16,715 nucleotides of DNA from an uncultured Deinococcales bacterium (GTDB lineage Bacteria > Deinococcota > Deinococci > Deinococcales > JAAFIG01). The notes beneath the pieces were generated by a model that saw only the letters and a program-made list of their open reading frames with translations, was not told the DNA's origin and did no database searches. A program made the position numbers and the translations under genes. Positions within the stretch are counted from its first letter, which is position 1. Each line of letters opens with the position of its first letter. Location: positions 1 to 16,715 of the forward strand of contig CAXTTL010000099.1 in assembly GCA_964247135.1 (NCBI GenBank), read 5' to 3'. This document shows positions 1-16,715 of the stretch, piece by piece.

Positions 1-708
1 GAACTCGAAGGGTTTGAGTTCGCCCAGACCCGTTTTGTTCAGTCTCGCGCCAACAAACTCTACGGTCACGCTGGTAATGTTGCTGCGCGAGGTGTTCAGA
101 TCGAGCACAAACAACATTGTGTGCTTGAAGTTCGCCTCGTCGTGTTCCTCGAGTTTGGTGTCATGCTCGAGCTTGCCAAACCAAGTTTTGATCTCGTTCG
201 AGAGTGCTTCGGTTTTTGGTTGGTTGCCCGTGTTCAAACCACGTTGCACCAAATTTGCACTGATTAAATCTTGTGCTTTTGGGTTGTCCAAGGATGCTGG
301 AGCTTGTGTCTGTCTGTTTGGTTCTTGAACTTTTTTTGAGATTTGGGCTGTTAGGCTTCGCAACATCTCCTCGACACTCGCCATTTCCGAACCTTCAAGG
401 GGTTCAAAAGCCACCGCGTTGATAAATCCTTGACGGTCAAGAAGCTCGAGCAACACGGCGGCGCTGTGTTTGCATTCAACCTCAACTGGGCAGCTACATT
501 CATCGTCAATTGAAAACGCCCCGTTGTCTTCGTAAACGGCAATGTTTTGCTCGTACAATTCACCGTCTGAGCCACGGACTTTGCCCACGATCAAACCGTC
601 ATCGGTGATTTGAACGCTTTTGACTTTTTTATCGGCACGAATTTTTCGCGCCCTGGTCAAGACCGCGCCGGTGTAAAAATCGCCAATGTCTTTTTTGGTG
701 AACTCCAT
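1..708 (-). CDS. SWIM zinc-finger protein, N-terminal part (probably a SWIM-SNF2 family helicase); runs off the left window edge
   Basis: Hand translation from ATG at 708 (MEFTKKDIGDFYTGAVLTRARKI...) stays open for 236 codons to position 1. It contains GKVRGSDGELYEQNI followed by the SWIM signature CSCPVEVECKHSAAVLL (CxC-x5-CxH). The SNF2 domain is inferred from the common architecture and is not visible in the window. Confidence 0.85.
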   Translation of the reverse strand, partial: MEFTKKDIGDFYTGAVLTRARKIRADKKVKSVQITDDGLIVGKVRGSDGELYEQNIAVYEDNGAFSIDDECSCPVEVECKHSAAVLLELLDRQGFINAVAFEPLEGSEMASVEEMLRSLTAQISKKVQEPNRQTQAPASLDNPKAQDLISANLVQRGLNTGNQPKTEALSNEIKTWFGKLEHDTKLEEHDEANFKHTMLFVLDLNTSRSNITSVTVEFVGARLNKTGLGELKPFEF

Positions 709-758
709 ACAAACTCGAGTTTACCGTGCCTTGTGAAAACCACCAAAGGCAAAAAGGC

Positions 759-2246
759 TCAATTTGTTTTTTTCTGATCCAGTACCGCCCAAAATTGTTT
801 GTACGCCACCTGCCAAACACTCGCGTCTCGAGGTTGGAAGGTACGAAGCTCAAACGAATTTCGCACCACCTGACGCAATTCAGTCCACCCGAGATCACCC
901 GTTCCGACGGCTTGCAGCAAAATATTGCCCGTCAGGGTTGCATCGACCGGACCTGCGATCACCTCGAGTTGTGTGGCGTTCGCCGTGAACTGATTTAAGA
1001 GTTCGACTTGGCAACCGCCGCCGACCACATGAATTCTGGGGACTCGGGATTCGGTCACATGCTCGAGTTTTTCAATCACCGTTCGGTATTTTAGTGCCAA
1101 ACTCTCGAGGATGCAGCGCACGATTGCCGCACGGGTTTCGGGAATGCGCTGGGTTGTTTCATGGCAGTAGGCTTGCACCCGCGCTGGCATGTCCTCACCT
1201 GGAGCGAGAAAACGCGCATCGTCGGGGTCGATCAAGCAGAGAAACGCTGTAGTGTTTTTTGCCTCGAGGTATAAATCTGACCATTCAGGGTTGCCCCAAC
1301 TGCGGCGGCATTCCTGCAAAATCCACAAGCCCATGACGTTTTTCAGCAATCGATTCGTGCCGTTGACCCCAGCCTCGTTCGTCAAATTCGCCTCGAGTGC
1401 CGCGCTCGAGATCACCGGTTCTGGCGTCTCGAGACCAACCAGCGACCACGTGCCGCTGGAAATGTATGCAACGTTCGGTTCGGTCATCGGCACACTCACC
1501 ACCGCCGAAGCCGTGTCATGACTGCCTGGAGCGATCACAAGGATATTCTCGAGGTTGGTGTCAATCATTACGTCGGGCAGCAAATTTCCAATTACGCTGC
1601 CCGCCTCGACAATTTTGGGCAAGATCGCGCTCGGAATCCCAAATTTCTCGAGCACCTCAAACGCCCAGTCCCCAGTTCTTGGGTTGTAAAACTGCGTGGT
1701 GCTGGCATTGGTGCGCTCACAGGATTTCACGCCCGTCAACCAAAAATGCAATAAATCTGGAACGAGCAAAAAATGCGCTGCGGTCTCGAGGATTTTCGGC
1801 GCATCACGTTTGAGGGCAATCAACTGATACAAAGTGTTAAACGGTAGAAATTGCAAACCTGTCGCCTCGAACAAAGAAGCTCGAGAAACGATGTTGAAAG
1901 CCTCTTCCATCACGCCGTTCGTTCGCGCATCGCGGTAGCCATGAACGCCGTCGAGCATCAAACTGTACCCGTCCAGCAACGCGTAATCCACCGCCCACGA
2001 ATCCACGCCGACGCTCGAGATTTTCAGGTTTCGCTCCTGCGCTCGAGCGGACGCCAGTTTTAAACCCTGCAAAATTTCGCGCCACAACGCAAGTACATCC
2101 CAATACAACCCACCCTGAAGTGGTGTGACCCCATTCCAAAAGCGATGCACAATTTCAACCTCGAGTTTGTTGTGCTCGAGTTTCCCAAGCCCAACGCGAC
2201 CCCCAGAAGCTCCGAGGTCAATGGCGATGTGGGCTGTGTTGGACAT
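759..2246 (-). CDS. rhaB: Rhamnulokinase (FGGY sugar kinase family)
   Basis: 495 aa with motifs IAIDLGASGGR, DSWAVD, TGLQFLPFNTLYQL, GSHDTASAV, ISSGTWSLVG, KNVMGLWILQE and VVGGG. It lies downstream of the rhamnulose-phosphate aldolase/dehydrogenase and has an AAGGAAA RBS-like sequence before the ATG. Confidence 0.93.
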   Translation of the reverse strand: MSNTAHIAIDLGASGGRVGLGKLEHNKLEVEIVHRFWNGVTPLQGGLYWDVLALWREILQGLKLASARAQERNLKISSVGVDSWAVDYALLDGYSLMLDGVHGYRDARTNGVMEEAFNIVSRASLFEATGLQFLPFNTLYQLIALKRDAPKILETAAHFLLVPDLLHFWLTGVKSCERTNASTTQFYNPRTGDWAFEVLEKFGIPSAILPKIVEAGSVIGNLLPDVMIDTNLENILVIAPGSHDTASAVVSVPMTEPNVAYISSGTWSLVGLETPEPVISSAALEANLTNEAGVNGTNRLLKNVMGLWILQECRRSWGNPEWSDLYLEAKNTTAFLCLIDPDDARFLAPGEDMPARVQAYCHETTQRIPETRAAIVRCILESLALKYRTVIEKLEHVTESRVPRIHVVGGGCQVELLNQFTANATQLEVIAGPVDATLTGNILLQAVGTGDLGWTELRQVVRNSFELRTFQPRDASVWQVAYKQFWAVLDQKKTN

Positions 2247-2264
2247 GGGTTTCCTTTTATTCCA

Positions 2265-2305
2265 CCCTCATCCCCGACCCTTCTCCCGCTGGCGGGAGAA
2301 GGGAG
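2265..2305. repeat. BoxC/REP-like intergenic palindromic element
   Basis: CCCTCATCCCCGA is followed by the inverted repeat CCCTTCTCCCGC (2278-2289) TG GCGGGAGAAGGG (2292-2303). This pyrimidine tail plus purine/pyrimidine hairpin layout resembles E. coli BoxC-type dispersed repeats. Only one copy is present in the window. Confidence 0.65.
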
Positions 2306-2355
2306 TCTCGAGGTTTATGTTGTGTGGCTCGAGTGCTTTTGCTAATTGCTCTTCG

Positions 2356-4401
2356 CTATCTCACATACGCCGTCGGCACGCCACCGTCCACGGTCAACAC
2401 GCCGCCCGTGGTTTTGCTCGAGGCTGGACTGGCAAAAAAGAACACGGCTTGCGCAATGTCGTCTGGAAAAACGTTGACGCGCAAGGTGGTGCGTTTGCGG
2501 TAGAACTCGTCGAGTTCTTCGGGTTTGATGCCGTAAGCTTTGGCGCGTTCTTCTTTCCAACTCGAGTTCCAGATGGCGCTGCCCGAAAGCACGGCGTCTG
2601 GCAGCACGGAATTGACGCGAATGCCTGCCGCGCCGCCCTCTTCGGCGAGGCAACGCGCCAGGTGAAGTTCGGCGGCTTTGGCGGCGCTGTAGGCGGCTGC
2701 GTTTTTGCCTGCCGCAATCGAGTTTTTGCTGGCGATCATGATCAGATTGCCGCCCAGGTTTTGCGCTCGCCAGAGTTTAAATGCCTCTCGAGACACCAGA
2801 AAATAACCGGTCGAAAGGATACTCTGGTTTTTGTTCCACATTTCCAAACTGGTTTCTTCAATCGGGGCGCTCGAGGCGATGCCCGCGTTGTTGACCACGA
2901 TGTCGATGCCGCCGTACTTGAGGATGGCTTGGGCAAAGGCGGCTTGGACCTGGTTTTCATCGGTGACATTCATGCTGACGGCAAAAGCGCGTTTGAACCC
3001 TCGGGTTTTGATGATCTCATTGGCAACATTTTGTGCGCCTTCAAGGTTTAAATCCGCGATCACGACGTGTGCGCCCTCGGCTGCCAGACGGTGCGCGATG
3101 GCTTTGCCAATCCCGCTGGCTGCACCAGTGACCAAAGCAACTTTGCCCTCGAGCGCTTTGGGGGCGGGTTTGAGGCTGAGCTTGTACAACTCGAGTGGCC
3201 AGTATTCGATGGCATACGATTCGGCGGCACTCAAGGACACGAATTTCCCTTGGGCGTTTTGCATCACCAAAATGGCACGGTGGTACAACTGTTTTGATAC
3301 TTCCGCGCCCATCGCATCCGCGCCAGAGGTAATCATGCCGATGCCAGGAATCAGGGTCACTCGAGGGTTGGGCGTGAACATCGTGTCGCCCTCGCTTTTG
3401 TTGGCGTTAAAGTATTCCGTGTACTCTTGCACGAATTGCGCGGCACTGGTTTTGGTGCGCTCGAGCAACGCATCAACGCCATCTTGTGGTTTCCAGTCAA
3501 TAAACAATGGCACGCGTTTGGTGTGAACCAGATGGTCGGGACAGGCGGCGCCGACTTGCGAACGCTCGAGTGCGCCCTGTGACCCAACAAACTCGAGCAC
3601 GGCGTCTGAATCGTCGTACAAGAGCACACTGCCGCGATCATTGCCGAAAGCGCCGCGCAGTACGGGCATCAATTTTGCGACAATGGCGTCACGTTCTGTT
3701 TTGGGCAGTGCCGCGACCACCATTTCTGGTTTAACCTTGTGCTGCTCGAGGTAAACTTCTGCCTCGGCAATAATTTTAAGGGTGCTCCGATACGACTCGA
3801 GAGACGTATCCCCCCAAGTCACCAGCCCGTGCTTGCCCATGACCACGCACTCGAGTTTCGGGTTGTTGCGCACGGCAGCGCCGATTTGCTGCGAGAGCGT
3901 GAACCCAGGGCGGATGTACTCGACCCAGGCGGCGCGTTCGCCGTAAATCTGACGCATGATGTCTCGCCCGTTTTCGCTGCAAGCAATCGCTATAATTGCG
4001 TCTGGATGAGTATGATCGACGTGTTTGGCTGGGACAAAAGCGTGAAGCAAGGTTTCAATGCTTTGCCTCGGGCGACCCACCTCAAACGCCGTGCGATCCA
4101 GGTACGCGACCATTTCCTCGTCGCTCATGCTGGGGCGTTCAAACAAGGGCAGTACTTCCTCGAGTTTTAATCCCGCGAAACCTTTTTCAGTGATGTTGGC
4201 GATGTCAGAACCCGAACCCTTCACCCACAGCACCGTGACCTCACGTCCAACGTGGTCTTTCTCGAGCGATTTGGTGCTGGTGTTGCCACCGTAAATGTTC
4301 ACCAAACTGCGGTCTGTACCGAGCAACCTCGAGCGGTAGGCAAGGCTGATGAGTCCATCTGATGGGGGTGCGTCGTTGTCGTTCCATAAGTTTTTAGGCA
4401 T
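2356..4401 (-). CDS. rhaEW: Bifunctional rhamnulose-1-phosphate aldolase / short-chain dehydrogenase (RhaEW/YuxG type)
   Basis: N-terminal class II aldolase (GGNTSTK, KGSG, SIETLLH, HVDHTHPD, CPDH) fused to a C-terminal SDR (TGAASGIG, NNAG, YSAAK, VDGG). Start moved from 4446 to ATG 4401 (MPKNLW), which follows the RBS GAGGAG; 681 aa. Confidence 0.92.
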   Translation of the reverse strand: MPKNLWNDNDAPPSDGLISLAYRSRLLGTDRSLVNIYGGNTSTKSLEKDHVGREVTVLWVKGSGSDIANITEKGFAGLKLEEVLPLFERPSMSDEEMVAYLDRTAFEVGRPRQSIETLLHAFVPAKHVDHTHPDAIIAIACSENGRDIMRQIYGERAAWVEYIRPGFTLSQQIGAAVRNNPKLECVVMGKHGLVTWGDTSLESYRSTLKIIAEAEVYLEQHKVKPEMVVAALPKTERDAIVAKLMPVLRGAFGNDRGSVLLYDDSDAVLEFVGSQGALERSQVGAACPDHLVHTKRVPLFIDWKPQDGVDALLERTKTSAAQFVQEYTEYFNANKSEGDTMFTPNPRVTLIPGIGMITSGADAMGAEVSKQLYHRAILVMQNAQGKFVSLSAAESYAIEYWPLELYKLSLKPAPKALEGKVALVTGAASGIGKAIAHRLAAEGAHVVIADLNLEGAQNVANEIIKTRGFKRAFAVSMNVTDENQVQAAFAQAILKYGGIDIVVNNAGIASSAPIEETSLEMWNKNQSILSTGYFLVSREAFKLWRAQNLGGNLIMIASKNSIAAGKNAAAYSAAKAAELHLARCLAEEGGAAGIRVNSVLPDAVLSGSAIWNSSWKEERAKAYGIKPEELDEFYRKRTTLRVNVFPDDIAQAVFFFASPASSKTTGGVLTVDGGVPTAYVR

Positions 4402-4422
4402 GACTCGCTCCTCGACCTTGGT

Positions 4423-4520
4423 ATGTTTGATTTTGCCGATATTCAAACATTAAACCACATTTTCTTGTGCGTTTCAAACTTTGAGGTAACATCAATCAAA
4501 CAATCACCCAAAAATCAAAC
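4423..4520 (-). promoter_or_regulatory. Putative operator array upstream of the rhamnose genes
   Basis: Inverted repeat ATGTTTGA-N12-TCAAACAT (4423-4450) plus further WWTCAAAC copies at 4472-4479, 4494-4501 and 4513-4520 in an AT-rich intergenic region. Confidence 0.55.
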
Positions 4521-4551: not shown

Positions 4552-5310
4552 TTACTGGACAATGCCAATGATGCCAGCGTAATCGCCCACACTGTCAAAA
4601 CCCGAGTTTGGTACGAACAATCCCGAAATGTTGCCATCCAAATAAAGTGCGTTTGGGCAGTGCAACACGTCTTTAAAAAACGTGGCGAACTCGTAAAAAC
4701 TCACCCAACTCTGCGCGATGACCAAATGAACACTCGAACCTGTTTCAACGCCCACACCGTTGCGCACGAGCATGTTGCTCGAGGATTTTTGAAATTTAGG
4801 ATTGATGTTGTTGTTTTGCACCAGCAATGGACCCGATTGGGTTGCCTCGAGCGCTTTTGGTTGGCTGCGAATATATTCTTGGGTGTTTAAGATTTTTGCA
4901 CCGTTTGCACCCCAAAAAAACACGCCATTGGGCTGCATGTAAAAATTACCAAACGCTTTGGTGCGGCGGTTGATGTTGTGCAGTGTTTGTCCATGCTGAA
5001 CCTGCAAACCGAGCGGAGTGTACGTCTTGTCAAAAATCCCAGCGTTCATGGCTGCCAGCAGCTTGACGCCGTTTTTGGCAAGTTGTCGCTCGAGGTTTTG
5101 AAAGGTTTTAAAGGGTTGGTTTTTGGGATCCTTCCAGAACATTTTGAGCTTGACTTTTTTCAAATCGACGCTGACCACCGCGTACTTGTTGCCAGCAAAC
5201 TCGAGTTGACGAATTTCCACGCCGTTGTCAATAGCTTTGGGTGCGGCAAGGCTCAGGATTGGCACGATGGCAGCCAGCGCTAGAACAATCAAGCCTCGAG
5301 CGAGATTCAT
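4552..5310 (-). CDS. Exported phosphodiester glycosidase family protein (YigE/DUF2233, NAGPA-like)
   Basis: 252 aa with a signal peptide (MNLARGLIVLALAAIVPILSLA) and motifs AMNAGIF, PLGL, GNFYMQPNGVF, ATQSGPLLV, RNGVGV, FYEFATFFKD and ALYLDGNIS. Confidence 0.88.
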   Translation of the reverse strand: MNLARGLIVLALAAIVPILSLAAPKAIDNGVEIRQLEFAGNKYAVVSVDLKKVKLKMFWKDPKNQPFKTFQNLERQLAKNGVKLLAAMNAGIFDKTYTPLGLQVQHGQTLHNINRRTKAFGNFYMQPNGVFFWGANGAKILNTQEYIRSQPKALEATQSGPLLVQNNNINPKFQKSSSNMLVRNGVGVETGSSVHLVIAQSWVSFYEFATFFKDVLHCPNALYLDGNISGLFVPNSGFDSVGDYAGIIGIVQ

Positions 5311-5434
5311 TGTGGGAGTACCGCGCTAAGACTAAGCTCAGGAAAGTCGAATCGATTGTTGGGTGTAAAGGTTTGAGATTTGCGCATACAATTTCCCGAT
5401 TATCATATTCGGTTCGTGTCGCCCAAGATGTGCG

Positions 5435-5451
5435 GTATGCTGAGAACAGAA
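5435..5451 (+). promoter_or_regulatory. RDRM-like (DdrO-binding) operator overlapping the -10 box TATGCT (5436-5441) and the polB start
   Basis: GTATGCTGAGAACAGAA matches the 17-bp RDRM consensus as recalled, T(T/C)(A/C)(T/C)G(T/C)NN(T/A)N(A/G)(A/G)C(G/A)(T/G)A(A/G), at every position except the first. Confidence 0.65.
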
Positions 5452-7766
5452 TGAAACTCGAGGTTGAAACCACTCACCAAACCAAAGCCTGGGTGTTTGG
5501 TTGGGACACCACGCCAGGCATCGTCAGTTTGTGGACTGGCAGTGGCGGCGAGGTGCTGGTCTGGCGGCGCGAAAATGGAGCACTCAAACTCGAGCATGAC
5601 CGTTACCGCCCGTGGATTTTTGCCGAACACCTCAAACATTTGTCGCACCTTGGCAACGCGCTGCAACACGACTCGAGCGATGGCGAATTTGCATTCCAAA
5701 AACTGCGCGGAAACGGCGCGTACCAATATTTGATCACTGCCAGGGATTCCAGAATGCTGCGCGGCGCGATTCTCGAGGGGGCAAAACAGGCGGGTTTGAC
5801 TGCCAACAACATCAATGATCTTGAAGGCTATTACAGCGTTGGTGCAGCCGAACAATACCTGATGCAGACGGGACGAACGTTTTTCCGTGACCTCGAGTTT
5901 TCAGATTTGAAACGCCTGCAATTTGACCTCGAGACGACTTCGCTCGAGCCTGCCTTTGGGCGCATCATCATGATTGCGGTGCGTGACTCGAGCGGTTTTG
6001 AAACCCTGCTCGAAGCGCCCAACCCCGAAGATGAGGCTGGGGCAATTCGTAAACTGGTGCAGATCATTCAAGACCGCAACCCCGACGTGATCGAGAATCA
6101 CAACCTGGTCGGTTTTGACCTGCCCTACCTCGAGCACCGCGCCCGAGAACTCAGTGTCAGGCTCGAGCTTGGACGCGCTCCAGCCCCGACCTTATTGCGC
6201 CGTGAAAATGTCAATGACCGTTTCAGCATCAACGGTCGAGAACTGATCGACACCCTGGATGCCGTCTGGCGGCACGATTTTGTCACCCGAGAACTCCCAA
6301 GTCACCGCCTGAAGGACGTTGCCAAGCATTACAAGCTTGCCGCCCCAGACCGCGAATACATCACAGGCTCGGAAATTGCGCTCGAGTACACCCGCAACCC
6401 CGAGCGCGTGCGGCGTTATGCGCTCGAGGATGTGCGCGAGGTGGACAGGTTGAGCCAGCGGTTGATGCCCGCCTCGTTCGCGCTGTCCAAACTTGCGCCG
6501 CGCCGCTTTGAACGCGTGGCAAGTGCGGGAACAGCCACCGGCATTCTCGAGCCGATGCTGGTTCGGGCGTATTTGCACCAAGGCTATGCCCTGCCGCGTT
6601 CGACCCGTGTTTACCTCGAGAAACCGCACGAGGGCGGCGCGGTGATGTTGTACGCCAGCGGTGTCGCAAAAAACGTGGTCAAAGCCGACATTGCCAGCCT
6701 ATACCCCAGCATCATGCGGGCGTTCAAAATTGGACCCGAATGCGACGAACTCGGGGCAATGCTCGAGATTGTGGATTCACTCACCACCCAGCGCCTCGGG
6801 TTTAAGAAATTGGCGAAAGATGCCGCTCGAGAAACCCCCACTTTTGCCCACGCCGACGCCATGCAAGCCGCCATGAAATTGATTATCAACAGCGCCTACG
6901 GTTATTTGGGCGCGGGCAAGATGGCGCTTTTTGCCGACCGTCCCGCCGCCGATGCGATCACCTTGCACGGCAGGCAAATTCTCGAGCAGGTCACCGTTCA
7001 ACTCAAAAAAGCGGGCATGACGCTGCTCGAGGCGGACACCGACGGCGTGTTTTTTGCGCTGCCCGAAACTTGGAATGAAGCTGGAGCTAGGGCTTTGGTT
7101 TCTCAAATCAGCGACACCCTGCCCGACGGTATCAAACTCGAGTTCGATAACTTGTACAAAACCATGCTCTCGCACGAAATCAAAAATTACGCGCTGCTGA
7201 CCTTTGACGGCACCATGATTTTGCGCGGCGCGGGTTTTCGCTCGAGCCGCTTTGAACCCTTTGGCGCAAAATTCTTAGAGGATTCCGTGCGCTGCATCCT
7301 CGAGAATGACGTGATTGGCGCTCGGAATGCGTATCTCACCGTGATCGAAAAATTGCAAGCTCGAGCGTACACGGCTGCCGAGGTTGCGACCCGCACCAAA
7401 CTCAGCAAGGGTGCGGAAACCTATGCCGCCAGCCGTCATAAGCTGAAGGAAGCTGCTTACGAAGCCATGCTCGAGGCGGGCAAAACCTGGCGCCGCAACG
7501 AAAAAATTCGGTTTTACCGAACTTTAAACGGCAAAAGCAAGCTCTTGCCAATCGATGAAGAAATCAGCAACCCGCTCGAGCTTGCCAAAGATTACGACGT
7601 GCCCTATTACGTCGCTCTGTTTGAACGCACCTATGTCAAACGCTTTGAGAAGGCTTTTGAACCTGAAGTTTTCGCTCAAGTCTTCCGCTCGAGCGTCCAG
7701 CACAGTTTGTTCGACCCGCCAATAACGGGTTTAAGTGTCAAATGGGTTGAAAAGGAGAAACCATGA
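5451..7766 (+). CDS. polB: Family B DNA polymerase with 3'-5' exonuclease domain
   Basis: ExoI FDLET, ExoII NHNLVGFDLPYL, ExoIII YALEDV; polymerase motif A KADIASLYPSIM, motif B KLIINSAYGYLG, motif C EADTDGV; C-terminal QHSLF. Start set at ATG 5451 (771 aa) because the 5241 start overlaps the divergent gene. Confidence 0.92.
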   Translation: MKLEVETTHQTKAWVFGWDTTPGIVSLWTGSGGEVLVWRRENGALKLEHDRYRPWIFAEHLKHLSHLGNALQHDSSDGEFAFQKLRGNGAYQYLITARDSRMLRGAILEGAKQAGLTANNINDLEGYYSVGAAEQYLMQTGRTFFRDLEFSDLKRLQFDLETTSLEPAFGRIIMIAVRDSSGFETLLEAPNPEDEAGAIRKLVQIIQDRNPDVIENHNLVGFDLPYLEHRARELSVRLELGRAPAPTLLRRENVNDRFSINGRELIDTLDAVWRHDFVTRELPSHRLKDVAKHYKLAAPDREYITGSEIALEYTRNPERVRRYALEDVREVDRLSQRLMPASFALSKLAPRRFERVASAGTATGILEPMLVRAYLHQGYALPRSTRVYLEKPHEGGAVMLYASGVAKNVVKADIASLYPSIMRAFKIGPECDELGAMLEIVDSLTTQRLGFKKLAKDAARETPTFAHADAMQAAMKLIINSAYGYLGAGKMALFADRPAADAITLHGRQILEQVTVQLKKAGMTLLEADTDGVFFALPETWNEAGARALVSQISDTLPDGIKLEFDNLYKTMLSHEIKNYALLTFDGTMILRGAGFRSSRFEPFGAKFLEDSVRCILENDVIGARNAYLTVIEKLQARAYTAAEVATRTKLSKGAETYAASRHKLKEAAYEAMLEAGKTWRRNEKIRFYRTLNGKSKLLPIDEEISNPLELAKDYDVPYYVALFERTYVKRFEKAFEPEVFAQVFRSSVQHSLFDPPITGLSVKWVEKEKP

Positions 7767-8239
7767 ACCGTGAAGCTCGAGATTTCCTGCGCCACACCGT
7801 CGCCACGCTCGCGTACCGTTGCAGCAAAACCTTGCGGGATGCGCCAGAGCATTTTGCGGATTTTAAAACCGAACTCACTGCAAATACGCCCGTGTTTTTG
7901 CTCTCGCACATTGCCGATTTGCTCGAGTGGGCGCTGACCATGACCCGTAGCGAACCCAAATATCCTGCAACAGTCATTGGCGATTGGCAGCTCGAGAAAC
8001 ACCGCTTTTACACTGCACTCAAAGCGCTCGATGATTTTCTGGCGTCCGAGGTTGTGATTGACGCGCCGCTCGAGAAAATATTTCAAGGTCCGATTGCCGA
8101 TGCGCTCACGCACACGGGACAGCTTGCCATGTTGCGACGTATGGCGGGATCACCGATCAAAGGCGAAAATTATTTTAAGGCAGACATCACCACGGGAGTT
8201 GTGGGCGAAAGTCAACCAGCACCAAAGCTCGAGTTTTAA
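7763..8239 (+). CDS. DinB/YfiT-like four-helix-bundle putative metalloprotein
   Basis: 158 aa with LLSHIADLL and DALTHTGQLAMLRR, resembling the DinB H...H-x3-H-x-GQ signature. Its ATGA overlaps the polB stop and it has the RBS AAGGAG. Confidence 0.75.
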   Translation: MNREARDFLRHTVATLAYRCSKTLRDAPEHFADFKTELTANTPVFLLSHIADLLEWALTMTRSEPKYPATVIGDWQLEKHRFYTALKALDDFLASEVVIDAPLEKIFQGPIADALTHTGQLAMLRRMAGSPIKGENYFKADITTGVVGESQPAPKLEF

Positions 8240-11042: not shown

Positions 11043-11122
11043 CAAATTCAAAACTGGTTGAACTGTTGATCTCGAGGATCACAACTGGCATTTGTCAATG
11101 TTGGTGTCGCGTGAAATCCAGA

Positions 11123-11725
11123 TTATTTGCGAGTCAAAGGTGCGATAAATATGTATTTTACATCCAGTGCGTTGGCAATCACTGTGCCATCGGTTAGTTT
11201 CGCCGCCAACAGTTTTTTGACCGCGCTGACCGATTGGGCGGGCAGCAATGCCGCGTAAGCTTTGCTGATCTGCGCATCTTTACTCGCATCTTTGGTGTAA
11301 GCCGGTTGGACGTGAATCACATTCCAGTACACGGTTTTTGCGTCGTTATCGGCTTGGCTTGGTAAACCATCCAAAACATGATCGTGGTAATCCCAAGCGT
11401 TTTCGCCGTCTCCAAAGTGATCGCAATAATTGCACAGTGGGCGTGCAAGCGTCTCCTGCCAACCTGTCGGGTATTCGGTTTCGTAAATCGTGTGAATCTG
11501 TTTTGCCGAAATACCTTTTGGGGCTGCGCCGAGGTTGGCGAATTGCACCAGACGGTTGTTCAAATAGGCTGGTTGAAACATCTCATGGGCTTGATCCACG
11601 GCATCGTGTTTCATGGTTTGCCGCATGTTGAGATTCGTGCTCGAGGGACGAGAATGGACTGAGGCGACTGCCACGGCGGCAATCAAAGCTGTGCCAACGA
11701 CCAACAACCAAACGGGACTTTTCAT
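11123..11725 (-). CDS. Secreted hypothetical protein with a Cys/His cluster (putative metal binding)
   Basis: Start reassigned to ATG 11725 after GGAGGA (200 aa). Signal peptide MKSPVWLLVVGTALIAAVAVA and motif PLCNYCDHFGDGENAWDYHDHVLD. It has its own predicted promoter and terminator. Confidence 0.8.
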   Translation of the reverse strand: MKSPVWLLVVGTALIAAVAVASVHSRPSSTNLNMRQTMKHDAVDQAHEMFQPAYLNNRLVQFANLGAAPKGISAKQIHTIYETEYPTGWQETLARPLCNYCDHFGDGENAWDYHDHVLDGLPSQADNDAKTVYWNVIHVQPAYTKDASKDAQISKAYAALLPAQSVSAVKKLLAAKLTDGTVIANALDVKYIFIAPLTRK

Positions 11726-11758
11726 AATTCCTCCAAAGTCATGCTTGTAACGAAGCCC

Positions 11759-11804
11759 ACGATAAAGCTCGCGTTTCAATGCTCGCATCGGGTGTTCACC
11801 CGAT
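11759..11804 (-). promoter_or_regulatory. Activator-type promoter: 18-bp palindrome plus -10 box
   Basis: ATCGGGTG-TT-CACCCGAT (11787-11804) has perfect 8-bp arms. On the minus strand TATCGT (11759-11764) lies 22 nt downstream, placing the palindrome centre at about -43.5. Confidence 0.7.
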
Positions 11805-11811
11805 CTTTTCT

Positions 11812-13308
11812 TCAGAGCAAATGGTTTTGCATGGCGTACAAGGTTGCCGCCGCTCGAGTGTTGAGATTCAACTTCTCGTAAATGTGTTGAACATGATGTC
11901 CCACGGTTTTGTAGGTGATGCCCAGTCGTTCGGCAATCAAGCGATTGGATTCTCCTCGAGCCAGCAAGCGTAGAACCTCGACCTCTCGAGGGCTGAGACC
12001 GCCAGGTGCCTGGATTCGGGTGGGTTTGATCCCATCTTGAATAATTCCCAAAGTGGTTTCAACCACCTGGGTATCGAATAAACCATCTTTGCAGCCCTCG
12101 AGCAACGCACTTTTGATCTCGAGTGGACTTCGTTTTGCGCGGTGAGGACGATCTTGTGACATGGCTTGGCTTACGTCGCTCACTGCCAAAATCCGCGCCG
12201 ATAAGTTGAGCATGGCGGCGGGCAAACCTTTATAGTACCCAGTCCCATTCAAGCGCTCGTGATGAGCGGCTGCCAAATAGACCAGTGGCTCGAGATAAAC
12301 GGCATTTTTCAAAACCCGTTCGGTATGATACGGGTGCAGGTAAAGCTGCTCGCGTTCTGATTCTGACAAACGAGCTGTTTTGTTCAACAACGCGGCGGAA
12401 AGCGCCACATGACCAACATCTTGAACCAGCGCCACGCGACGTACAAGACTGGCATCCGCGCCAAGCGTTTGCGCCACACGACCTGCGAGGCTTGCCACGG
12501 CGCGAGCGTGACCGCGCAACCAGGTGGATTTTAGCGCGGTGAAATCGGACAATGCCTCAAGAACTTTGTCCACACCACCCTCATTGACCATGATCTGCGG
12601 CGCTGGCTCGAGCTTGAGGATGGCTTCGCGCACCGATGGCAAGCCCTCGAGTTCTGCCATCAAACCCACAATCACAGCATCGAATGCCTCCACCAGGGCT
12701 GGGTTAAAGCTTTGACCTGCACGTTTTTGCAGCACTGTTCGGGTTGCTTGTGTCCCAAGAAAATGCGAGAGGCTGATGAAATCTCGAGCGATTTGTACCA
12801 CTTGAACGCCGATCAAAATTGCCTCGCCTCGCAAGCCAGAGGGCAGACCTGTTCCGTCCCAATGCTCAAACAATTGCCACAATCCCGTTTGCAGCTTGGC
12901 ACTTAAACCGCAAGACGCCGCCAGCCGAGCGGCAACATCGCAACTCGAACGGTTCATTTCGAGTGCCGTTTCTGGGTCCACCAAAGGCAAATGCTGGGGC
13001 AATTGTTGGTTAAAATCGTCGGGCACAATCCCCATATGGTGTACGATCAGGCTTTGCATGGCAGACCGATCATTGCCCATAAACGCCGCGAAACTGCTGG
13101 CACTTGTTGTACATCCCAAAAAGTGCAGCAATGCCAGGTAAAAAATATTGTTCTGCTCGAGCAACCCAAGTTTTAGGGTTTGGGCAAATCGTAGGGCAAG
13201 CCAGCAAGCCTTAAACGCGCTGCCGATGGGTTGACCCATGCCCAAGTCGGTTGCCGCCGCCGTTGCAACCAGCAGATCGGCAAGGCGAATCGTGTGGGCA
13301 GTTGACAT
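11812..13308 (-). CDS. Tandem HD/HD-GYP domain protein with C-terminal LuxR-type HTH (transcriptional regulator)
   Basis: HD-GYP motifs FEHWDGTGLPSGLRGEAI, HPYHTERVL, HHERLNGTGY and ARILAVSDVSQAMSQDRPHR; LuxR HTH LSPREVEVLRLLARGESNRLIAERLGITYKTVGHHVQHIYEKL. Start set at ATG 13308 (498 aa), 8 nt after the extended -10 TGATACGCT. Confidence 0.9.
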   Translation of the reverse strand: MSTAHTIRLADLLVATAAATDLGMGQPIGSAFKACWLALRFAQTLKLGLLEQNNIFYLALLHFLGCTTSASSFAAFMGNDRSAMQSLIVHHMGIVPDDFNQQLPQHLPLVDPETALEMNRSSCDVAARLAASCGLSAKLQTGLWQLFEHWDGTGLPSGLRGEAILIGVQVVQIARDFISLSHFLGTQATRTVLQKRAGQSFNPALVEAFDAVIVGLMAELEGLPSVREAILKLEPAPQIMVNEGGVDKVLEALSDFTALKSTWLRGHARAVASLAGRVAQTLGADASLVRRVALVQDVGHVALSAALLNKTARLSESEREQLYLHPYHTERVLKNAVYLEPLVYLAAAHHERLNGTGYYKGLPAAMLNLSARILAVSDVSQAMSQDRPHRAKRSPLEIKSALLEGCKDGLFDTQVVETTLGIIQDGIKPTRIQAPGGLSPREVEVLRLLARGESNRLIAERLGITYKTVGHHVQHIYEKLNLNTRAAATLYAMQNHLL

Positions 13309-13375
13309 TTCAAAGTAGCGTATCACGCCCTTGTTCTGGCGAGACGAGCAAACATCAAGTCCCAGTCTTTATCCC

Positions 13376-14185
13376 TCACTCAAAAACAGCTAATTCTTCC
13401 AGCAATTCCTCGAGTTGCTCCCGTCGGCTTGTCTCACAACGTTGCGCCGTGCCAATCACCAGCAAATGCGCGAGGCTGGACATCAAACCCGACGCGCCGT
13501 ATTGACTGATGGCTTGGGTTGGCACGCGCAAAATATGGCTTGCCAGTGGCAGCAGTGGCGACGCGCCGTTGTCCGTAACCAGCAAAATGCTTGCCCCTCG
13601 AGTTTTGAGGCTTGTTGCGATTTGGGTGCTTGATCTGGCGTAACGCCGCGTCGAAAAAACCAGCACGGTGTCCTCCAAGCTGGCATCGAGCAGAATTTCT
13701 GGGCTGAACATGGTGCTCGGCTCGAGCAACCTGACCTCCGTGCGGACGCTCGAGAGTAATTCTTGGGTCAAGATGGCATGACCTTTGTTGGAGCGTGATC
13801 CCAGAATCCAAACGCGTCTGGCACTGGCGAGCACCTCACAGATGCGCTCGAGCAGTTCGTCGGAGGTGCGGCTGAGTTCCTCGAGGTTTTGTTTTTCGCG
13901 TTGCCAGTACGCGGCGAACACGCCCTCGGTGGTTTCTGGCACGGATGGCGCTTGTTGTTCGCGCAGTTCGCGGCGCAGGGCGCGGCGCAAATCTGGATAG
14001 CCTTCAAAACCCAGACGCTGGGCAAAGCGCGTGATGCTCGAGGGGCTTGTCTCGAGTTGGGCGGCGAGTTCCGCGCCCGAAAGCAAAAGTGTCGCCTCGA
14101 GGTTTGATAAAAAGTGCGTGGCGATTTGGTGGTCGGACGGCGAGAAATCGGCGGTGTTGTGGTCGATGCGTTCGCGCAGGGTCAT
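13376..14185 (-). CDS. RpiR/MurR family transcriptional regulator (HTH + SIS)
   Basis: 269 aa with N-terminal FSPSDHQIA...ELAAQLETSPSSITRFAQRLGFEGYPDL and a SIS domain (RRVWILGSR, VFSTRRY, LLVTDNGASPL). Divergent from ABC binding-protein genes. Confidence 0.9.
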   Translation of the reverse strand: MTLRERIDHNTADFSPSDHQIATHFLSNLEATLLLSGAELAAQLETSPSSITRFAQRLGFEGYPDLRRALRRELREQQAPSVPETTEGVFAAYWQREKQNLEELSRTSDELLERICEVLASARRVWILGSRSNKGHAILTQELLSSVRTEVRLLEPSTMFSPEILLDASLEDTVLVFSTRRYARSSTQIATSLKTRGASILLVTDNGASPLLPLASHILRVPTQAISQYGASGLMSSLAHLLVIGTAQRCETSRREQLEELLEELAVFE

Positions 14186-14244
14186 GGGTTTTCCAATCTC
14201 GAGGGTTGAGGCTTTTATTTTACGGTTTTTCGCAAAACTCGAGT

Positions 14245-14294
14245 TTGCAAAATAAATTTCAAAATGGTATCTTAATCTAGCAAGAAAAATTGCA
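14245..14294 (+). promoter_or_regulatory. Sigma70-type promoter of the ABC binding protein with two candidate operator boxes
   Basis: -35 TTGCAA (14245-14250), 17-bp spacer, extended -10 TGgTATCTT (14265-14273). Boxes TGCAA-N6-TTTCA (14246-14261) and AGCAA-N6-TTGCA (14279-14294). Confidence 0.65.
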
Positions 14295-14370
14295 AAAGGG
14301 CAAGTGCGCTTGAAGGGACAGACTGCGATTCAAACGTGCATTGCTTGCAATTGCACCATAAGGAGAACCT

Positions 14371-15948
14371 ATGAACAAGCGTTTGGGTGCAGTGGCAGCA
14401 TTGCTCGGCATTGGACTCTTGACCGTCGGCGTGACGGCTCAAAACTCCCGCTCGAGCACCCTGATTTACGGCGGAGACTGGTCTGGACTCATCACCGTTG
14501 ACCCTGGTCAAAGTTACGAATTCGCGGGCAGTCTGGTCACTGACAACTTGTACGAGACGCTGGTGAAGTTTGAAGGCACGGACTTGTCCACGCTCAAAGC
14601 GGGTATTGCCACCAAATGGACGACCAAAGACGCGGGTGACTCCTGGAAGGTCACGTTCAAACTGCGCAATGAAAAATTCTCGAGCGGCAATCCTGTGACC
14701 GCCGATGACGTGGTTTACAGCTTCGACCGTGCGATTGCCCTTAAAGGACCTGGGTCATTCTTGTTCACCAGCGTCGCCAACATGAAAGTCGGCAGCACCA
14801 AAGCCATCAACTCGAGCACCGTCGAATGCACCCTGCCCAAAACCGCCAGCCCAGCGGCGTTCCTCAATTTACTGACCTTTAACATTGGCGGCATTGTGGA
14901 CAGCATTGTGGTCAAAAGCCACGTGGTGGACAACGACTACGGCACGAATTGGCTCAAACGCAATTCGGCTGGCTCAGGACCATTCGTGCTCAACCGCTGG
15001 GATCAAAGCCAGCAAGTCGTGCTCGATGCCAACCCCAAATCGCGCTTGCAATCGAGTCTCAGCCGCGTGATCTTGCGCGAGATGAAAGAAGCCAACACCC
15101 AAAAAATCGCGCTCGAGACTGGCGAAATTGACATTGCCGATAATCTCACGCCGGACATGGTGAAAGCCAAAGCCACCGAGGGTAAATTCAACGTTTACAA
15201 AGCCGATTCGCTTAATCTTCAATACTTGGGCATGAACGTCGGCGATGCCAGCCCATTCAAGGATGCTCGAGTTCGTCAGGCGGTGCGTTACGCGCTTGAC
15301 CAGGACGGGATCATCTCGAGTTTGGCTGGCGGCAACGGACGTAAAGTCCAGACCATCATTCCTGCGGGCTTGTTCGGTTTTAACCCAGCCACGCCGTACA
15401 ATTTAAATCCAGAGAAAGCCAAAGAATTGCTGAAGGCGGCAGGCAAAGAGGGCGGCTTCGAGTTTGACATGCTGACGCCGCAAGGCGCTTGCTTGGCGGG
15501 CATTCCGTGCGCCGATCTGGCAGCCAAAATTCAGTCTGACCTTGCCAAAATTGGTTTGAAAGCCAACATCAAGCAACTCGTCGATTCCGAACTCTACCCG
15601 CTCTACCGCGCCCAAAAAGCCACGATGGTCTTGGTGGACTGGTCACCGGATTTTCCCGATCCGGACGGCAACGCCACCCCAATGAGCGACTTCGGTGCAA
15701 AAAGCCTGGCGTGGCGCAACGTTTGGAACAACCCGAGCGCGGGTGCGTTGGCGCAAAAAGCGGCACTCGAGCCGAATCCGACCAAACGTGCAGCCTTGTA
15801 CAAGCAACTGACCGAACTGCAACTCGAGGATGGTCCATTTGCGATTTTGTTCCAACCGACCGTTTCGGTGACGCTCAATAAAGCCGTCAAGGGGTATGTG
15901 CGCAACGCGCAAAACCAGATTCGCTTTGAAAAAATCTCCAAGCAATAA
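14371..15948 (+). CDS. ABC transporter substrate-binding protein, family 5 (dipeptide/oligopeptide, DppA/DdpA-like)
   Basis: 525 aa with a signal peptide and motifs LITVDP, NLYETLV, FSSGNPVTADDVVYSFDR, AGSGPFVL, LETGEIDIA, PFKDARVRQAV and WSPDFPDPD. RBS AAGGAG. Confidence 0.93.
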   Translation: MNKRLGAVAALLGIGLLTVGVTAQNSRSSTLIYGGDWSGLITVDPGQSYEFAGSLVTDNLYETLVKFEGTDLSTLKAGIATKWTTKDAGDSWKVTFKLRNEKFSSGNPVTADDVVYSFDRAIALKGPGSFLFTSVANMKVGSTKAINSSTVECTLPKTASPAAFLNLLTFNIGGIVDSIVVKSHVVDNDYGTNWLKRNSAGSGPFVLNRWDQSQQVVLDANPKSRLQSSLSRVILREMKEANTQKIALETGEIDIADNLTPDMVKAKATEGKFNVYKADSLNLQYLGMNVGDASPFKDARVRQAVRYALDQDGIISSLAGGNGRKVQTIIPAGLFGFNPATPYNLNPEKAKELLKAAGKEGGFEFDMLTPQGACLAGIPCADLAAKIQSDLAKIGLKANIKQLVDSELYPLYRAQKATMVLVDWSPDFPDPDGNATPMSDFGAKSLAWRNVWNNPSAGALAQKAALEPNPTKRAALYKQLTELQLEDGPFAILFQPTVSVTLNKAVKGYVRNAQNQIRFEKISKQ

Positions 15949-15954
15949 TGTTTA

Positions 15955-15998
15955 AGAGTCTCGAGCTGAGCTTCTACGTTCAGCTCGAGATTTTATTT
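15955..15998 (+). terminator. Intrinsic terminator after the first binding-protein gene
   Basis: TCTCGAGCTGA (15959-15969) pairs with TCAGCTCGAGA (15980-15990), followed by TTTTATTT. Confidence 0.85.
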
Positions 15999-16118
15999 CG
16001 TGCCCTCTCAATCAATTCCTCGAGCCATTTGAACGCAGTCAAAAAGTCACGCCAGTGTCAAACTGCGCCCAGTGAAATAGCGTAGACTGAAAAAGCTATT
16101 CAAATTGAGGAGGGGTGT

Positions 16119-16715
16119 ATGCGAAAACGTATCGGCGCGGCAGTATTGGTGGGCATCGGTTTACTGGCGGTGGGGGTGGCTCAAAATTCACGCTCGAGTA
16201 CGCTGGTGTATGGTCTGGATTCGAGTGATCTGATCACGCTCGATCCAGGTCAAAGTTACGAGTTCTCGGGTGGTCTGATTGCCGACAATTTGTACGAAAC
16301 GTTGGTGAAGTTTGAAGGCGAGGACTTGTCGACCCTGAAGCCCAGCATCGCCACCAAGTGGAGCACCAAAGATGCAGGCGATTCTTGGAAGGTCACGTTC
16401 AAGCTTCGCAACGAGAAATTTTCATCAGGCAATCCTGTGACCGCCGACGATGTGGTTTACACTTTTGACCGTGCGATTGCGCTCAAAGGCAACGGTTCGT
16501 TCTTGTTTACCGACGTGGCAAACATCAAGGTGGGCAGCACCAAAGCCATCGACAAATCCACGGTCGAAGTCAGCCTGCCCAAAACCGCCAGTCCAGCCGC
16601 TTTCCTCAACTTGCTGACCTTTAACATTGGTGGCATTGTGGACAGCGTGGTGGTCAAATCGCACGTGGTCAACAACGATTACGGTTCGGCTTGGCACAAG
16701 AACAACTCGGCGGGT
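16119..16715 (+). CDS. Second family 5 ABC substrate-binding protein, tandem paralog; runs off the right window edge
   Basis: Hand translation from ATG 16119 (RBS GAGGAGG, -10-like TAGACT at 16083-16088) gives MRKRIGAAVLVGIGLLAVGVAQNSRSSTLVYGLDSSDLITLDPGQSYEF..., open for 199 codons. About 152/179 residues from AQNSRSS onward are identical to the upstream gene by manual alignment. Confidence 0.92.
   Translation, partial: MRKRIGAAVLVGIGLLAVGVAQNSRSSTLVYGLDSSDLITLDPGQSYEFSGGLIADNLYETLVKFEGEDLSTLKPSIATKWSTKDAGDSWKVTFKLRNEKFSSGNPVTADDVVYTFDRAIALKGNGSFLFTDVANIKVGSTKAIDKSTVEVSLPKTASPAAFLNLLTFNIGGIVDSVVVKSHVVNNDYGSAWHKNNSAG

Follow-up and report, generated by a model that had tools for sequence, protein, structure and literature searches.

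Why should a single palindromic hexamer, CTCGAG, recur 8.2 times per kb in genes and spacers alike? The question is raised by a 16,715-nt stretch of DNA from an uncultured Deinococcales bacterium (contig CAXTTL010000099.1), which we call the window. It is contig C99 of the metagenome-assembled genome (MAG) GCA_964247135.1, hereafter G000 (5,091,702 bases in 386 contigs, the longest 115.6 kb; completeness 84.08%, contamination 1.79%, G+C 52.7%). An earlier note, made from the letters of the window, had proposed that CTCGAG behaves as a highly iterated palindrome (HIP) outside the cyanobacteria, where HIP1 is the type case. Our analyses uphold that proposal: the hexamer is hyperabundant, independent of reading frame, present in non-coding DNA, conserved between relatives and spread across a clade. 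We are highly confident that it is a real HIP-like motif, held in place by a selection-like force that acts on the exact hexamer. CTCGAG is a watermark of the whole genome, to be taken neither for a gene or repeat element nor for an effect of codon usage.

CTCGAG in the window

Exact counting returned the 137 sites that had been counted by eye, the first at 148 and the last at 16193-16198. In 200 dinucleotide-preserving shuffles of the window the mean was 3.00 sites (sd 1.69, maximum 9), and none of the 200 reached 137. The excess is ~46-fold over these shuffles and ~25-33-fold over base composition; the earlier expectation of 4-5 sites was slightly high. By frame, 83 sites read CTC GAG, 18 read NCT CGA GNN and 23 read NNC TCG AGN, with 13 more in intergenic DNA, and each of the 13 open reading frames (ORFs) in the set used holds at least one. 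Sites thus occur in every gene, in all three frames and between genes, as the earlier note had it. All ten intergenic positions that it named are correct, as is its NNC TCG AGN example at 14451; its Ala-Arg-Asp example was read correctly and in the right frame, but starts at 7776 and not at 7777. The 18 variants that differ from CTCGAG by one base occur 0-10 times apiece in the window (74 in total). The sites referred to in the text are as follows.

148-16198, no strand: array of 137 CTCGAG (8.2 per kb), across all 13 ORFs and the spacers; exact count
714-719, no strand: intergenic site between the ORF at 1-708 (minus strand) and the FGGY kinase gene at 759-2246 (minus strand)
2307-2333, no strand: two intergenic sites (2307, 2328), directly 3' of a dispersed hairpin repeat
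7776-7781, plus strand: site in frame NCT CGA GNN (Ala-Arg-Asp) of the 158-aa ORF at 7763-8239; by frame check and translation
8347, 8409 and 8512: additional intergenic sites, in a stretch without a convincing gene
11071-11076, no strand: intergenic site between the NFACT gene and the ORF at 11123-11788
14198-14243, no strand: two intergenic sites in the divergent spacer between the RpiR gene (minus strand) and the SBP_bac_5 gene (plus strand)
14451-14456, plus strand: site in frame NNC TCG AGN of the solute-binding protein gene at 14371-15948
15960-16024, no strand: three intergenic sites (15960, 15984, 16019) downstream of the SBP_bac_5 gene

Genome-wide abundance and codon controls

The genome behind the window holds 33,925 copies of CTCGAG, one per 150 bp or 6.7 per kb, which makes it the commonest of all 4,096 hexamers. 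Enrichment limited to this contig had been named as a result that would overturn the proposal; instead, all 386 contigs are enriched, at 2.56 sites per kb or more (median 6.8; 5th-95th percentile 4.5-8.9), and the trait is clade-wide. Markov models gave observed/expected (O/E) ratios of 24.7x at order 0, 35.2x at order 1, 14.4x at order 2, 3.4x at order 3 and 1.2x at order 4, the last being low because the motif dominates the pentamers themselves. The impression that one-mismatch variants are much rarer was borne out here as in the window, with 96-2,216 copies for each of the 18 neighbors. The tetramer TCGA lies within CTCGAG in 33,925 of 54,606 cases (62%), against a median of 2.6% and a maximum of 14.6% in other phyla (78 loci, 1.34 Mb, among the listed matches to an IF-2 probe, which also included 2 Deinococcus loci). 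A degenerate unit, CYCGRG, was considered and rejected, since CCCGAG (2,134), CTCGGG (2,216) and CCCGGG (124) are all far below CTCGAG. The next most over-represented hexamers of G000 are A/T-tracts: GGTTTT/AAAACC (5.4x), CAAAAA/TTTTTG (5.8x) and TTTAAA (3.7x).

We then asked how much of this excess protein and codon content could supply. A crude coding set of 3,738 ORFs of at least 150 aa covers 80% of the genome and contains 79% of the sites, at 6.55 per kb against 7.16 per kb in the remainder; in spacers of 30-400 bp between ORFs, density per kb was 7.6 where the flanking ORFs diverge, 8.9 where they run in one direction and 9.7 where they converge. The 26,681 coding sites divide into 16,332 as CTC GAG, 4,168 as NCT CGA GNN and 6,181 as NNC TCG AGN. 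Synonymous shuffling within genes, which keeps both protein and codon usage, left ~2,900, 310 and 540 sites in these frames (~3,800 in total), and shuffling of codon order left ~1,100, 160 and 280 (5 replicates each). Both controls are conservative because the motif itself inflates the codon usage that is fed into them. The codon-shuffled comparison by frame, which the earlier note had called for beside Markov models, thus shows an excess in every frame, and one ground for doubt that it named, an effect of codon or dipeptide usage, does not account for the sites.

The motif has in fact reshaped the proteome. Of all CTC and GAG codons 44% lie inside CTCGAG, as do 31% of CGA and 29% of TCG. Leu-Glu is spelled CTCGAG in 16,332 of 21,213 occurrences (77%), whereas CTC makes up 15% of Leu codons without a following Glu and GAG 33% of Glu codons without a preceding Leu. 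The Leu-Glu dipeptide itself has an O/E of 2.38, rank 1 of 400, against 1.01 for the reverse, Glu-Leu. The force behind the motif is strong enough to fix codon choice and to raise Leu-Glu 2.4-fold. The sites also enter structural RNA genes: 8 of 66 predicted tRNA genes contain CTCGAG (e.g., C14:11589-11740 and C157:3282-3938), and their density of 1.6 per kb is far under the genome average yet above chance. A repeat of the repetitive extragenic palindrome (REP) or miniature inverted-repeat (MITE) type was rejected as the carrier, given that no flanking position has a base above 0.42 and that 79% of sites are coding.

Conservation and turnover of sites

To follow individual sites, 368 kb of a genome of the same genus (G210, 6.49 sites per kb) was compared with G000, which gave 83 high-scoring segment pairs with 240,907 columns at 84.9% identity. 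CTCGAG was kept at 722 of 877 CTC GAG sites, 168 of 239 NCT CGA GNN sites, 283 of 355 NNC TCG AGN sites and 197 of 244 non-coding sites, that is, at 0.70-0.82, compared with 0.44 in every class for other hexamers. Against other genera of the family (21,605 columns, 72% identity) the figures were 56 of 135 (0.415) and 0.179. Identity between G000 and G210 was 0.92-0.95 at each of the six motif bases. In the flanks, from positions -1 and +6 out to 40 bp, observed/expected identity was 0.97-0.98, and a random-position control gave 0.97-1.00; because flank identity is at the control level, the effect is not a regional drop in mutation rate.

Site loss is ~3.6 times slower than background. Genome-wide, the ratio of sites to one-off neighbors is ~1.47, as opposed to 1/18 under neutral reversible substitution, which implies that gain of sites is favored as well. 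By our own calculation, slowed loss and favored gain together amount to a scaled advantage of about 3, through selection or biased conversion. Among 609 non-shared sites in gap-free alignment, 346 have a partner that differs by one base: CTCGAA/TTCGAG in 101, CTCGGG/CCCGAG in 95 and CTTGAG/CTCAAG in 75, with transitions dominant at all three half-site positions. Hypermutability of 5-methylcytosine (m5C) at the central CpG was tried as an account of these changes and rejected, as CTTGAG/CTCAAG partners show no excess. The one-base partners and near-random flanks establish that CTCGAG has spread by nucleotide substitution and not by insertion of an element. These alignments show that the exact hexamer is favored at the DNA level by a selection-like directional force, at all six positions and only at those. 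Either biased gene conversion or natural selection at individual sites could supply it, and the sequence data fit both equally.

Spacing, flanks and site-free DNA

Sites tend not to lie close together. In G000 a fraction of 0.044 of the gaps is 20 bp or shorter, against a geometric expectation of 0.126, and tandem sites (gap 6) are absent, because the junction would make GAGCTC, of which the genome has no copy. Choice of codon, with the protein sequence held constant, responds to distance in the same way: the share of Leu-Glu pairs written as CTCGAG rises from 0.42 at 7-12 bp from the nearest other site to 0.62 (13-20 bp), 0.74 (21-30 bp) and 0.85 (71-150 bp). The lower usage near a neighbor indicates that the benefit of a site drops within ~30 bp. 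Such local saturation fits a protein footprint, or a function that needs one site per neighborhood, and would be unexpected from a mutation bias autonomous to each site. The flanks carry a weak symmetric preference, for A at -3 and for G at -1, both within and outside coding DNA.

Site-free gaps of at least 1.5 kb number 18 in G000. The ten longest span 1.9-2.6 kb, and seven of these ten have 27-40% G+C, against 52.7% for the genome. Among the products encoded in site-free islands are a fusion of reverse transcriptase with a trypsin-like peptidase, STAND-like AAA/TPR/BTAD proteins, an O-antigen ligase and proteins that match no family. Three low-G+C, CTCGAG-free islands of G000 are at these coordinates.

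C4:51606-53234
C13:5540-9091
C70:14265-16157

These low-G+C islands look like accessory, recently acquired DNA on which the motif force has yet to act. The reverse transcriptase-peptidase fusion and the STAND-like AAA_16/TPR/BTAD genes are probably recently arrived defense genes.

Distribution across the Deinococcota

The trait was mapped over the phylum, as the earlier note had recommended, by plain counts of CTCGAG in 201 whole Deinococcota genomes, with the reversed word GAGCTC as control; labels f, g and G denote families, genera and genomes of this survey. A composite probe, GCTCGAGC-N20-CTCGAG, was dropped in favor of plain counts since it is confounded by G+C content. Family f1, to which G000 belongs, comprises 19 genomes in five genera, and all 19 match the window DNA. 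Density was measured in nine of them and lies between 4.5 and 9.7 sites per kb. It is 5.2-6.7 per kb in the whole genomes G000, G188 and G193 and 6.5 per kb in the 368 kb of G210; 15 Deinococcales MAG loci have 4.5-9.7 sites per kb at G+C contents from 44% to 60%.

Three levels of density emerged. Genera g5, g7, g8, g32, g9, g10, g24, g34, g38 and more have 1.5-3.6 sites per kb, GAGCTC being 5- to 100-fold less frequent there. In 20-kb samples of these intermediate genomes, O/E is 5-10 and 25-58% of TCGA lies inside CTCGAG, low-G+C members included. Sites outnumber those of synonymous shuffles in each of the frames and are enriched outside coding DNA as well; for g5, g7 and g8 of family f3, sites by frame were 168/25/31 against 66/2/5 after shuffling. 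At the low end, the 83 genomes of g3, which we infer to be Deinococcus, are depleted (0.01-0.25 per kb), and the 30 Thermus-like genomes of g4 (~2.2 Mb) have ~0.6-1.6 per kb, equal to the GAGCTC control. Named records gave the following.

Allomeiothermus silvanus pMESIL01: CTCGAG O/E 3.7
Oceanithermus profundus pOCEPR01: CTCGAG O/E 7.8
Deinococcus radiodurans MP1: CTCGAG O/E 0.5
D. arenicola and D. piscis chromosomal loci: 0 and 1 CTCGAG

The suggestion of the earlier note that other Deinococcota are rich in CTCGAG holds for the Allomeiothermus and Oceanithermus records and for many further genera. The trait runs through a whole family of uncultured Deinococcales and, at lower amplitude and with lineage-specific flanks, through most Deinococcota.

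The flanks define local variants. In g4, 83-90% of CTCGAG in the genomes compared lies inside the 8-mer CCTCGAGG (1,768 of 1,966 in G003), which occurs at ~0.8 per kb, by our estimate ~21x the expectation from base composition and 4-9 times its reversed control GGAGCTCC. In the first 50 kb of T. thermophilus HB8 pTT27, 45 of 49 TCGA are in CTCGAG and 39 of these 45 in CCTCGAGG; in a 20-kb sample of G003, all 20 TCGA lie in CCTCGAGG. G178 has 6,198 copies of CCTCGAGG, f5 genera prefer GCTCGAGC, and G000 disfavors a C..G flank (641 of 33,925 sites).

Other palindromes are abundant in single lineages. A 20-kb sample of G122 (73.7% G+C) contains 60 copies of GACGTC (9.4x) and 30 of CGACGTCG (35x), and CGAGCTCG has 14 copies (17-18x) in each of G043 and G086; alternate HIPs are one possible reading of these words, codon-pair effects at very high G+C content another. 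Among the viral (IMG/VR) matches listed for a pattern that requires clustered CTCGAG, some contigs have 3.5-6 sites per kb; in L244, L252, L266, L217 and L205 the density is 3.5-5 per kb over 5-13 kb, and each frame holds more sites than after synonymous shuffling. Should these be phages that infect trait-bearing hosts, the motif would be common to virus and host instead of being avoided by the virus.

Methyltransferases, endonucleases and palindrome avoidance

HIPs in cyanobacteria have been linked to DNA methyltransferases, and a methyltransferase-coupled mutational or repair process was the first mechanism put forward for this DNA. A search of G000 with five methyltransferase Pfam families plus TaqI_C found 12 proteins that match DNA-methyltransferase families. 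Eight were profiled over the family; two MmeI-like type IIL proteins (Eco57I-family matches), a 1,499-aa protein on C112 and a 133-aa fragment were left aside. The profiles were as follows.

C5 enzyme on C14: 39 genomes searched, 2 matches (88% and 73% identity)
Beta-class enzyme on C36: 39 genomes searched, 4 matches at 43% identity or more
Methyltransferase C178: 5 genomes searched, none at ortholog level
Methyltransferase C189: 5 genomes searched, none at ortholog level
Methyltransferase C207: 5 genomes searched, 1 match and a fragment
D12 enzyme on C320: 5 genomes searched, 2 matches
HsdM-like C169: 23 genomes searched, best 48-50% identity, in 3
Methyltransferase C4b: 23 genomes searched, 2 matches, both with in-frame stops

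None of these eight enzymes of G000, a MAG 84% complete, is conserved across the five genera of the family. The C5 enzymes of nine other family genomes form three orthologous pairs only, and G210, G188 and G216 have one C5 enzyme each, none of them orthologous to another. No match to Vsr (PF03852) was found in G000, and no XhoI-family endonuclease (PF04555) in G000, G188 or G193; XhoI-family endonucleases occur in 4 of 201 Deinococcota genomes, all in f4 or f5, one of them broken. The coupling to a methyltransferase therefore found no support in this gene content. Nor did the alignments favor it: extra conservation does not spread into the flanks, and losses are not concentrated at one deamination-prone position.

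TaqI_C-domain methyltransferases are present in 60 of 201 genomes, including 30 of 30 in g4, and none was found in G000 or G188. The g4 gene adjoins a RE_TaqI endonuclease in three of four loci examined, which indicates that the paucity of TCGA in Thermus is ordinary restriction-modification (R-M) avoidance; despite this genus-wide TaqI-type system, TCGA survives in Thermus-like genomes almost only within CCTCGAGG. A second TaqI_C class of ~560-630 aa gives a weaker match, is mostly solitary (without an XhoI-family endonuclease) and belongs mainly to trait-positive genera (g5, g8, g16, g25, g28 and g40; 1 among 83 g3 genomes). At G086:C1:1095131-1096226, in-frame stops or a frameshift interrupt the gene of an XhoI-family endonuclease, and a 597-aa weak-TaqI_C methyltransferase is encoded ~260 bp away, a locus that looks like a decayed XhoI-type R-M system leaving a solitary methyltransferase. 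From such sequence context we infer that the ~560-630-aa proteins are XhoI/PaeR7I-like methyltransferases, which many high-density genomes, among them G000 and G188, lack. TaqI_C enzymes were rejected as the general partner of the motif, as outside g4 their presence does not track CTCGAG density.

Most G+C-containing 6-bp palindromes, each expected ~1,100-1,700 times, are nearly eliminated from the 5.09 Mb of G000: GAGCTC 0, GGGCCC 1, CGGCCG 3, AGGCCT 4, CGTACG 5, GGATCC 7, CCGCGG 11, CAGCTG 15, GCATGC 17 and ACTAGT 18. The window has no GAGCTC, CTGCAG or CCCGGG in its 16.7 kb, and GAGCTC is also rare in relatives (6-15 copies). The small, patchy methyltransferase repertoire beside this avoidance suggests heavy and changing restriction pressure.

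What might maintain the motif

Our tentative preference, drawn by analogy and rated a possibility that falls short of probable, is that CTCGAG marks resident or kin DNA as the site of a dimeric protein, and that the motif has spread through DNA exchange and recombination. The hexamer would be bound by a symmetric (dimeric) protein that covers ~20-30 bp and marks the DNA as resident or kin. Motif-carrying DNA would then be favored in DNA exchange and homologous recombination, through a bias in uptake, protection or integration. Sites would accumulate by molecular drive, as proposed for uptake sequences and recently for HIP1, and would spread by biased conversion; in family f1 the reading of the motif would seemingly be independent of a conserved methyltransferase. 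We favor a role of the motif in DNA exchange because conservation, saturation, absence from new DNA and lineage-specific variants are signatures that it shares with uptake sequences and HIP1, because competence machinery is present (ComEC and DprA were each found in 18 of 19 family genomes), and because HIP1 is now argued to act in this way.

Several points weigh against this account. No CTCGAG-reading protein was identified, and the specific mechanism rests on analogy. The ComEC and DprA profiles also match non-competent control genomes, which makes these genes weak support. Thermus, the bearer of CCTCGAGG, is not known to prefer any sequence when it takes up DNA, which argues against an uptake receptor and moves the idea to a step after uptake. 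Uptake sequences are 9-12 bp long, non-palindromic and spaced at ~1 per kb, in contrast to a 6-bp palindrome at 1 per 150 bp. The effect of HIP1 on transformation in cyanobacteria depends on methylation, and no conserved methyltransferase was found in family f1. Finally, selection for the site of a nucleoid protein would yield the same sequence signatures.

A broader form of the idea, which we regard as speculative and improbable, is that palindromes with a CTCGAG core make up a phylum-wide, methylation-independent code for kin DNA, read by a symmetric recombination or competence protein and spread by biased conversion. The code would take the form of CTCGAG in family f1, GCTCGAGC in f5 genera and CCTCGAGG in Thermus-like genomes and G178. 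Were this true, HIPs would be no cyanobacterial oddity but a general, convergent feature of naturally transformable lineages such as Cyanobacteria and Deinococcota, both of which are polyploid.

Marking by a solitary CTCGAG methyltransferase, with methyl-directed mismatch repair or another methyl-reading function ratcheting the sites upward as has been proposed for HIP1 and the alternate HIPs (Elhai 2015), is an unlikely alternative. HIPs in cyanobacteria are each described as paired with a cognate methyltransferase (PMC4390886), CTCGAG-specific m5C methylation is reported in Halorubrum (PMC8112702), and the mostly solitary ~560-630-aa weak-TaqI_C proteins sit mainly in trait-positive genera; the ~260 bp between the G086 enzyme and the broken XhoI-family gene suggests CTCGAG specificity. 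G000 is 84% complete, and its search spanned five methyltransferase Pfam families plus TaqI_C. Yet the eight profiled enzymes are found at ortholog level in 0-2 of 5 genomes or 2-4 of 23-39; the C5 enzymes of G210, G188 and G216 are not orthologous; no TaqI_C protein was found in G000 or G188 and no Vsr in G000; and a TaqI_C protein is carried by the highest-density g5 genomes and by 0 of 4 g7 genomes. Extra conservation ends at the hexamer edge with no repair gradient around it, and changes spread over the half-site positions (101/95/75) with no CpG excess. Judged from these sequence patterns, Vsr-type repair and Elhai's model of proximity to a methyl mark are disfavored, at least for the preservation of sites. 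It is also unlikely, in our estimate, that CTCGAG is the site of an abundant nucleoid-associated or chromosome-organizing protein under weak selection on density, as Xu et al. proposed for HIP1. Such a protein fits hexamer-exact conservation with weak symmetric flanks, a footprint that saturates within ~30 bp and even density over 386 contigs, and lineage-specific flanks are expected if it co-evolves with its site. No candidate was found, however, and site-free new islands are not explained by such a protein in itself but are expected under any slow process; moreover, of two well-studied genera of the phylum, the one inferred to be Deinococcus does without the motif and the Thermus-like one keeps only ~0.8 per kb.

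Restriction pressure as the sole cause, with CTCGAG the one protected TCGA-containing or palindromic word among others that were purged, is very improbable. The near loss of G+C-containing 6-bp palindromes from G000 agrees with it, as does the confinement of TCGA almost wholly to CCTCGAGG in Thermus-like genomes with TaqI R-M. Protection would explain tolerance, however, and neither a 25-fold excess nor conservation above background; other NTCGAN words in G000 are near expectation (20,681 observed against ~18,400), and the synonymous shuffles, which show active enrichment in every frame, contradict it, as do the preservation of sites and its sharp edge at the hexamer. Scarcely credible, lastly, is a neutral origin in context-dependent mutation, codon or dipeptide usage, a dispersed repeat or the assembly. 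CTC GAG is indeed the largest frame class, and one intergenic site pair abuts a dispersed repeat. Controls for protein and codon usage nevertheless account for no more than a small part of the excess, sites are no sparser outside coding DNA than within it, and the flanks are nearly random. Sites are kept 1.6-1.9 times more often than other hexamers, which is unlike pure mutational input, local saturation is unexpected on such terms, and the trait recurs in independent assemblies and isolate records, so that this explanation is already contradicted. Taken as sequence evidence, these results exclude a codon or dipeptide artefact, a repeat element and plain mutation bias.

Genes and repeats of the window

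The genes that carry the sites are of ordinary housekeeping and accessory types.

1-708, minus strand: ORF
759-2246, minus strand: FGGY kinase gene
5241-7766, plus strand: family-B DNA polymerase, 841 aa, with exonuclease and RNase_H_2-like parts
7763-8239: 158-aa ORF overlapping the end of the polymerase gene, without a Pfam match
11123-11788, minus strand: 221-aa ORF with 1 CTCGAG only (1.5 per kb), the lowest density in the window
14371-15948, plus strand: SBP_bac_5 solute-binding protein gene
Minus strand, divergent to the SBP_bac_5 gene: RpiR regulator gene
Further window genes, by family matches: aldolase/SDR fusion, NFACT protein and HD/LuxR regulator

The polymerase gene contains 25 CTCGAG sites and so looks resident. 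No Rfam match was found in the window, and no 16S rRNA gene in G000 (84.08% complete). A dispersed repeat of ~45 bp at 2261-2306 forms a perfect hairpin with a 12-bp stem, CCCTTCTCCCGC-TG-GCGGGAGAAGGG, has a REP-like look and is directly followed by CTCGAG. Copies lie in many places in G000, including C27:15690, C180:1825, C149:4149, C226:42 and C272:5932, and the repeat was found in all five same-genus genomes at 85-100% identity.

Comparison with known systems

Among known DNA words, CTCGAG most invites comparison with HIP1 (GCGATCGC) and the alternate HIPs. Like them it is a short G+C-rich palindrome in tens-fold excess, in all frames and in non-coding DNA, and like HIP1 it has spread by substitution, is conserved above background and clade-wide, has lineage-specific extensions and variants, and is accompanied by a common one-off shadow. 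Its excess of 24.7x (order 0), 35x (order 1) and 14x (order 2) compares with the palindrome excess of at least ~15-fold that characterizes HIPs, and its occurrence in all frames and non-coding DNA, its spread by substitution and its conservation above comparable words complete the likeness. The same method recovered HIP1 at 73x in a cyanobacterial control locus. The same conservation pattern has been described for HIP1 (Xu 2018, PMC5861425), which has been proposed, for cyanobacteria only, as a DNA-uptake or kin-recognition sequence (GBE 2026, PMC13756078; also bioRxiv 10.1101/2024.09.10.611283), and whose density is given as 0.3-2.7 per kb (Elhai 2015, PMC4390886, Table 2). For HIP1, Xu et al. 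(2018) also describe spacing that is periodic at the kilobase scale. CTCGAG differs from HIP1 in phylum, in word, in length (6 bp vs 8 bp) and in its 6.7 copies per kb, and its one-off variants are not biased to outer positions. It differs, too, in that HIP1 has DmtA/DmtC-type enzymes, whereas no conserved cognate methyltransferase was found in family f1, on the basis of 8 of the 12 enzymes of an 84% complete MAG.

The uptake sequences of Pasteurellaceae (USS) and Neisseriaceae (DUS) offer a second comparison. They share with CTCGAG an excess in coding and non-coding DNA, constraint by protein sequence, conservation in relatives and scarcity in recently acquired DNA, together with possible accumulation by molecular drive and the presence of competence genes (here ComEC and DprA, a permissive indication). 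USS and DUS are 9-12 bp, non-palindromic and present at ~1 per kb, and CTCGAG, a 6-bp palindrome at 6.7 per kb, has no such core. Uptake bias has been shown experimentally for those sequences, whereas a role of this kind for CTCGAG is argued by analogy.

CTCGAG is also the recognition site of XhoI/PaeR7I, and XhoI-family endonucleases with probable cognate methyltransferases exist in a few Deinococcota. R-M targets are normally avoided, however, while CTCGAG is 25x enriched and the endonuclease family is confined to 4 of 201 genomes. XhoI would cut trait-bearing DNA to ~150-bp pieces unless it is modified. Dcm/Vsr very-short-patch repair in E. coli, where CCWGG is in excess, is a precedent for repair that raises the target word of a methylase; its effect there is small. 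Here, in contrast, no Vsr was found in G000, and CTTGAG (1,442) and CTCAAG (1,436) are at or above expectation and not depleted.

Three decades after it became known, HIP1 has, to our knowledge, no agreed function, and it has been seen as a peculiarity of cyanobacteria. A different word in a different phylum makes the HIP phenomenon general, and separates it from a conserved cognate methyltransferase, none having been found in family f1. The phylum offers natural contrasts, from ~0.01 to 6.7 sites per kb and with three flank variants, that suit phylogenetic profiling for the reader of the motif. The trait reaches cultured, transformable organisms, Meiothermus and Allomeiothermus, and, as CCTCGAGG, Thermus; if the variant is what it seems, it would make a 30-year-old question testable in the genetic model Thermus thermophilus. 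For these MAGs the motif is, in addition, a strong mark of composition, of use in binning and in the recognition of foreign DNA. The word CTCGAG was not found in the main texts of Elhai 2015 (PMC4390886) and Xu 2018 (PMC5861425), and the literature searched, which lay outside subscription journals, REBASE and supplements, gave no description of CTCGAG or CCTCGAGG hyperabundance in Deinococcota. Set beside HIP1, CTCGAG looks like a second, independent and even denser case of the HIP type, outside the cyanobacteria.

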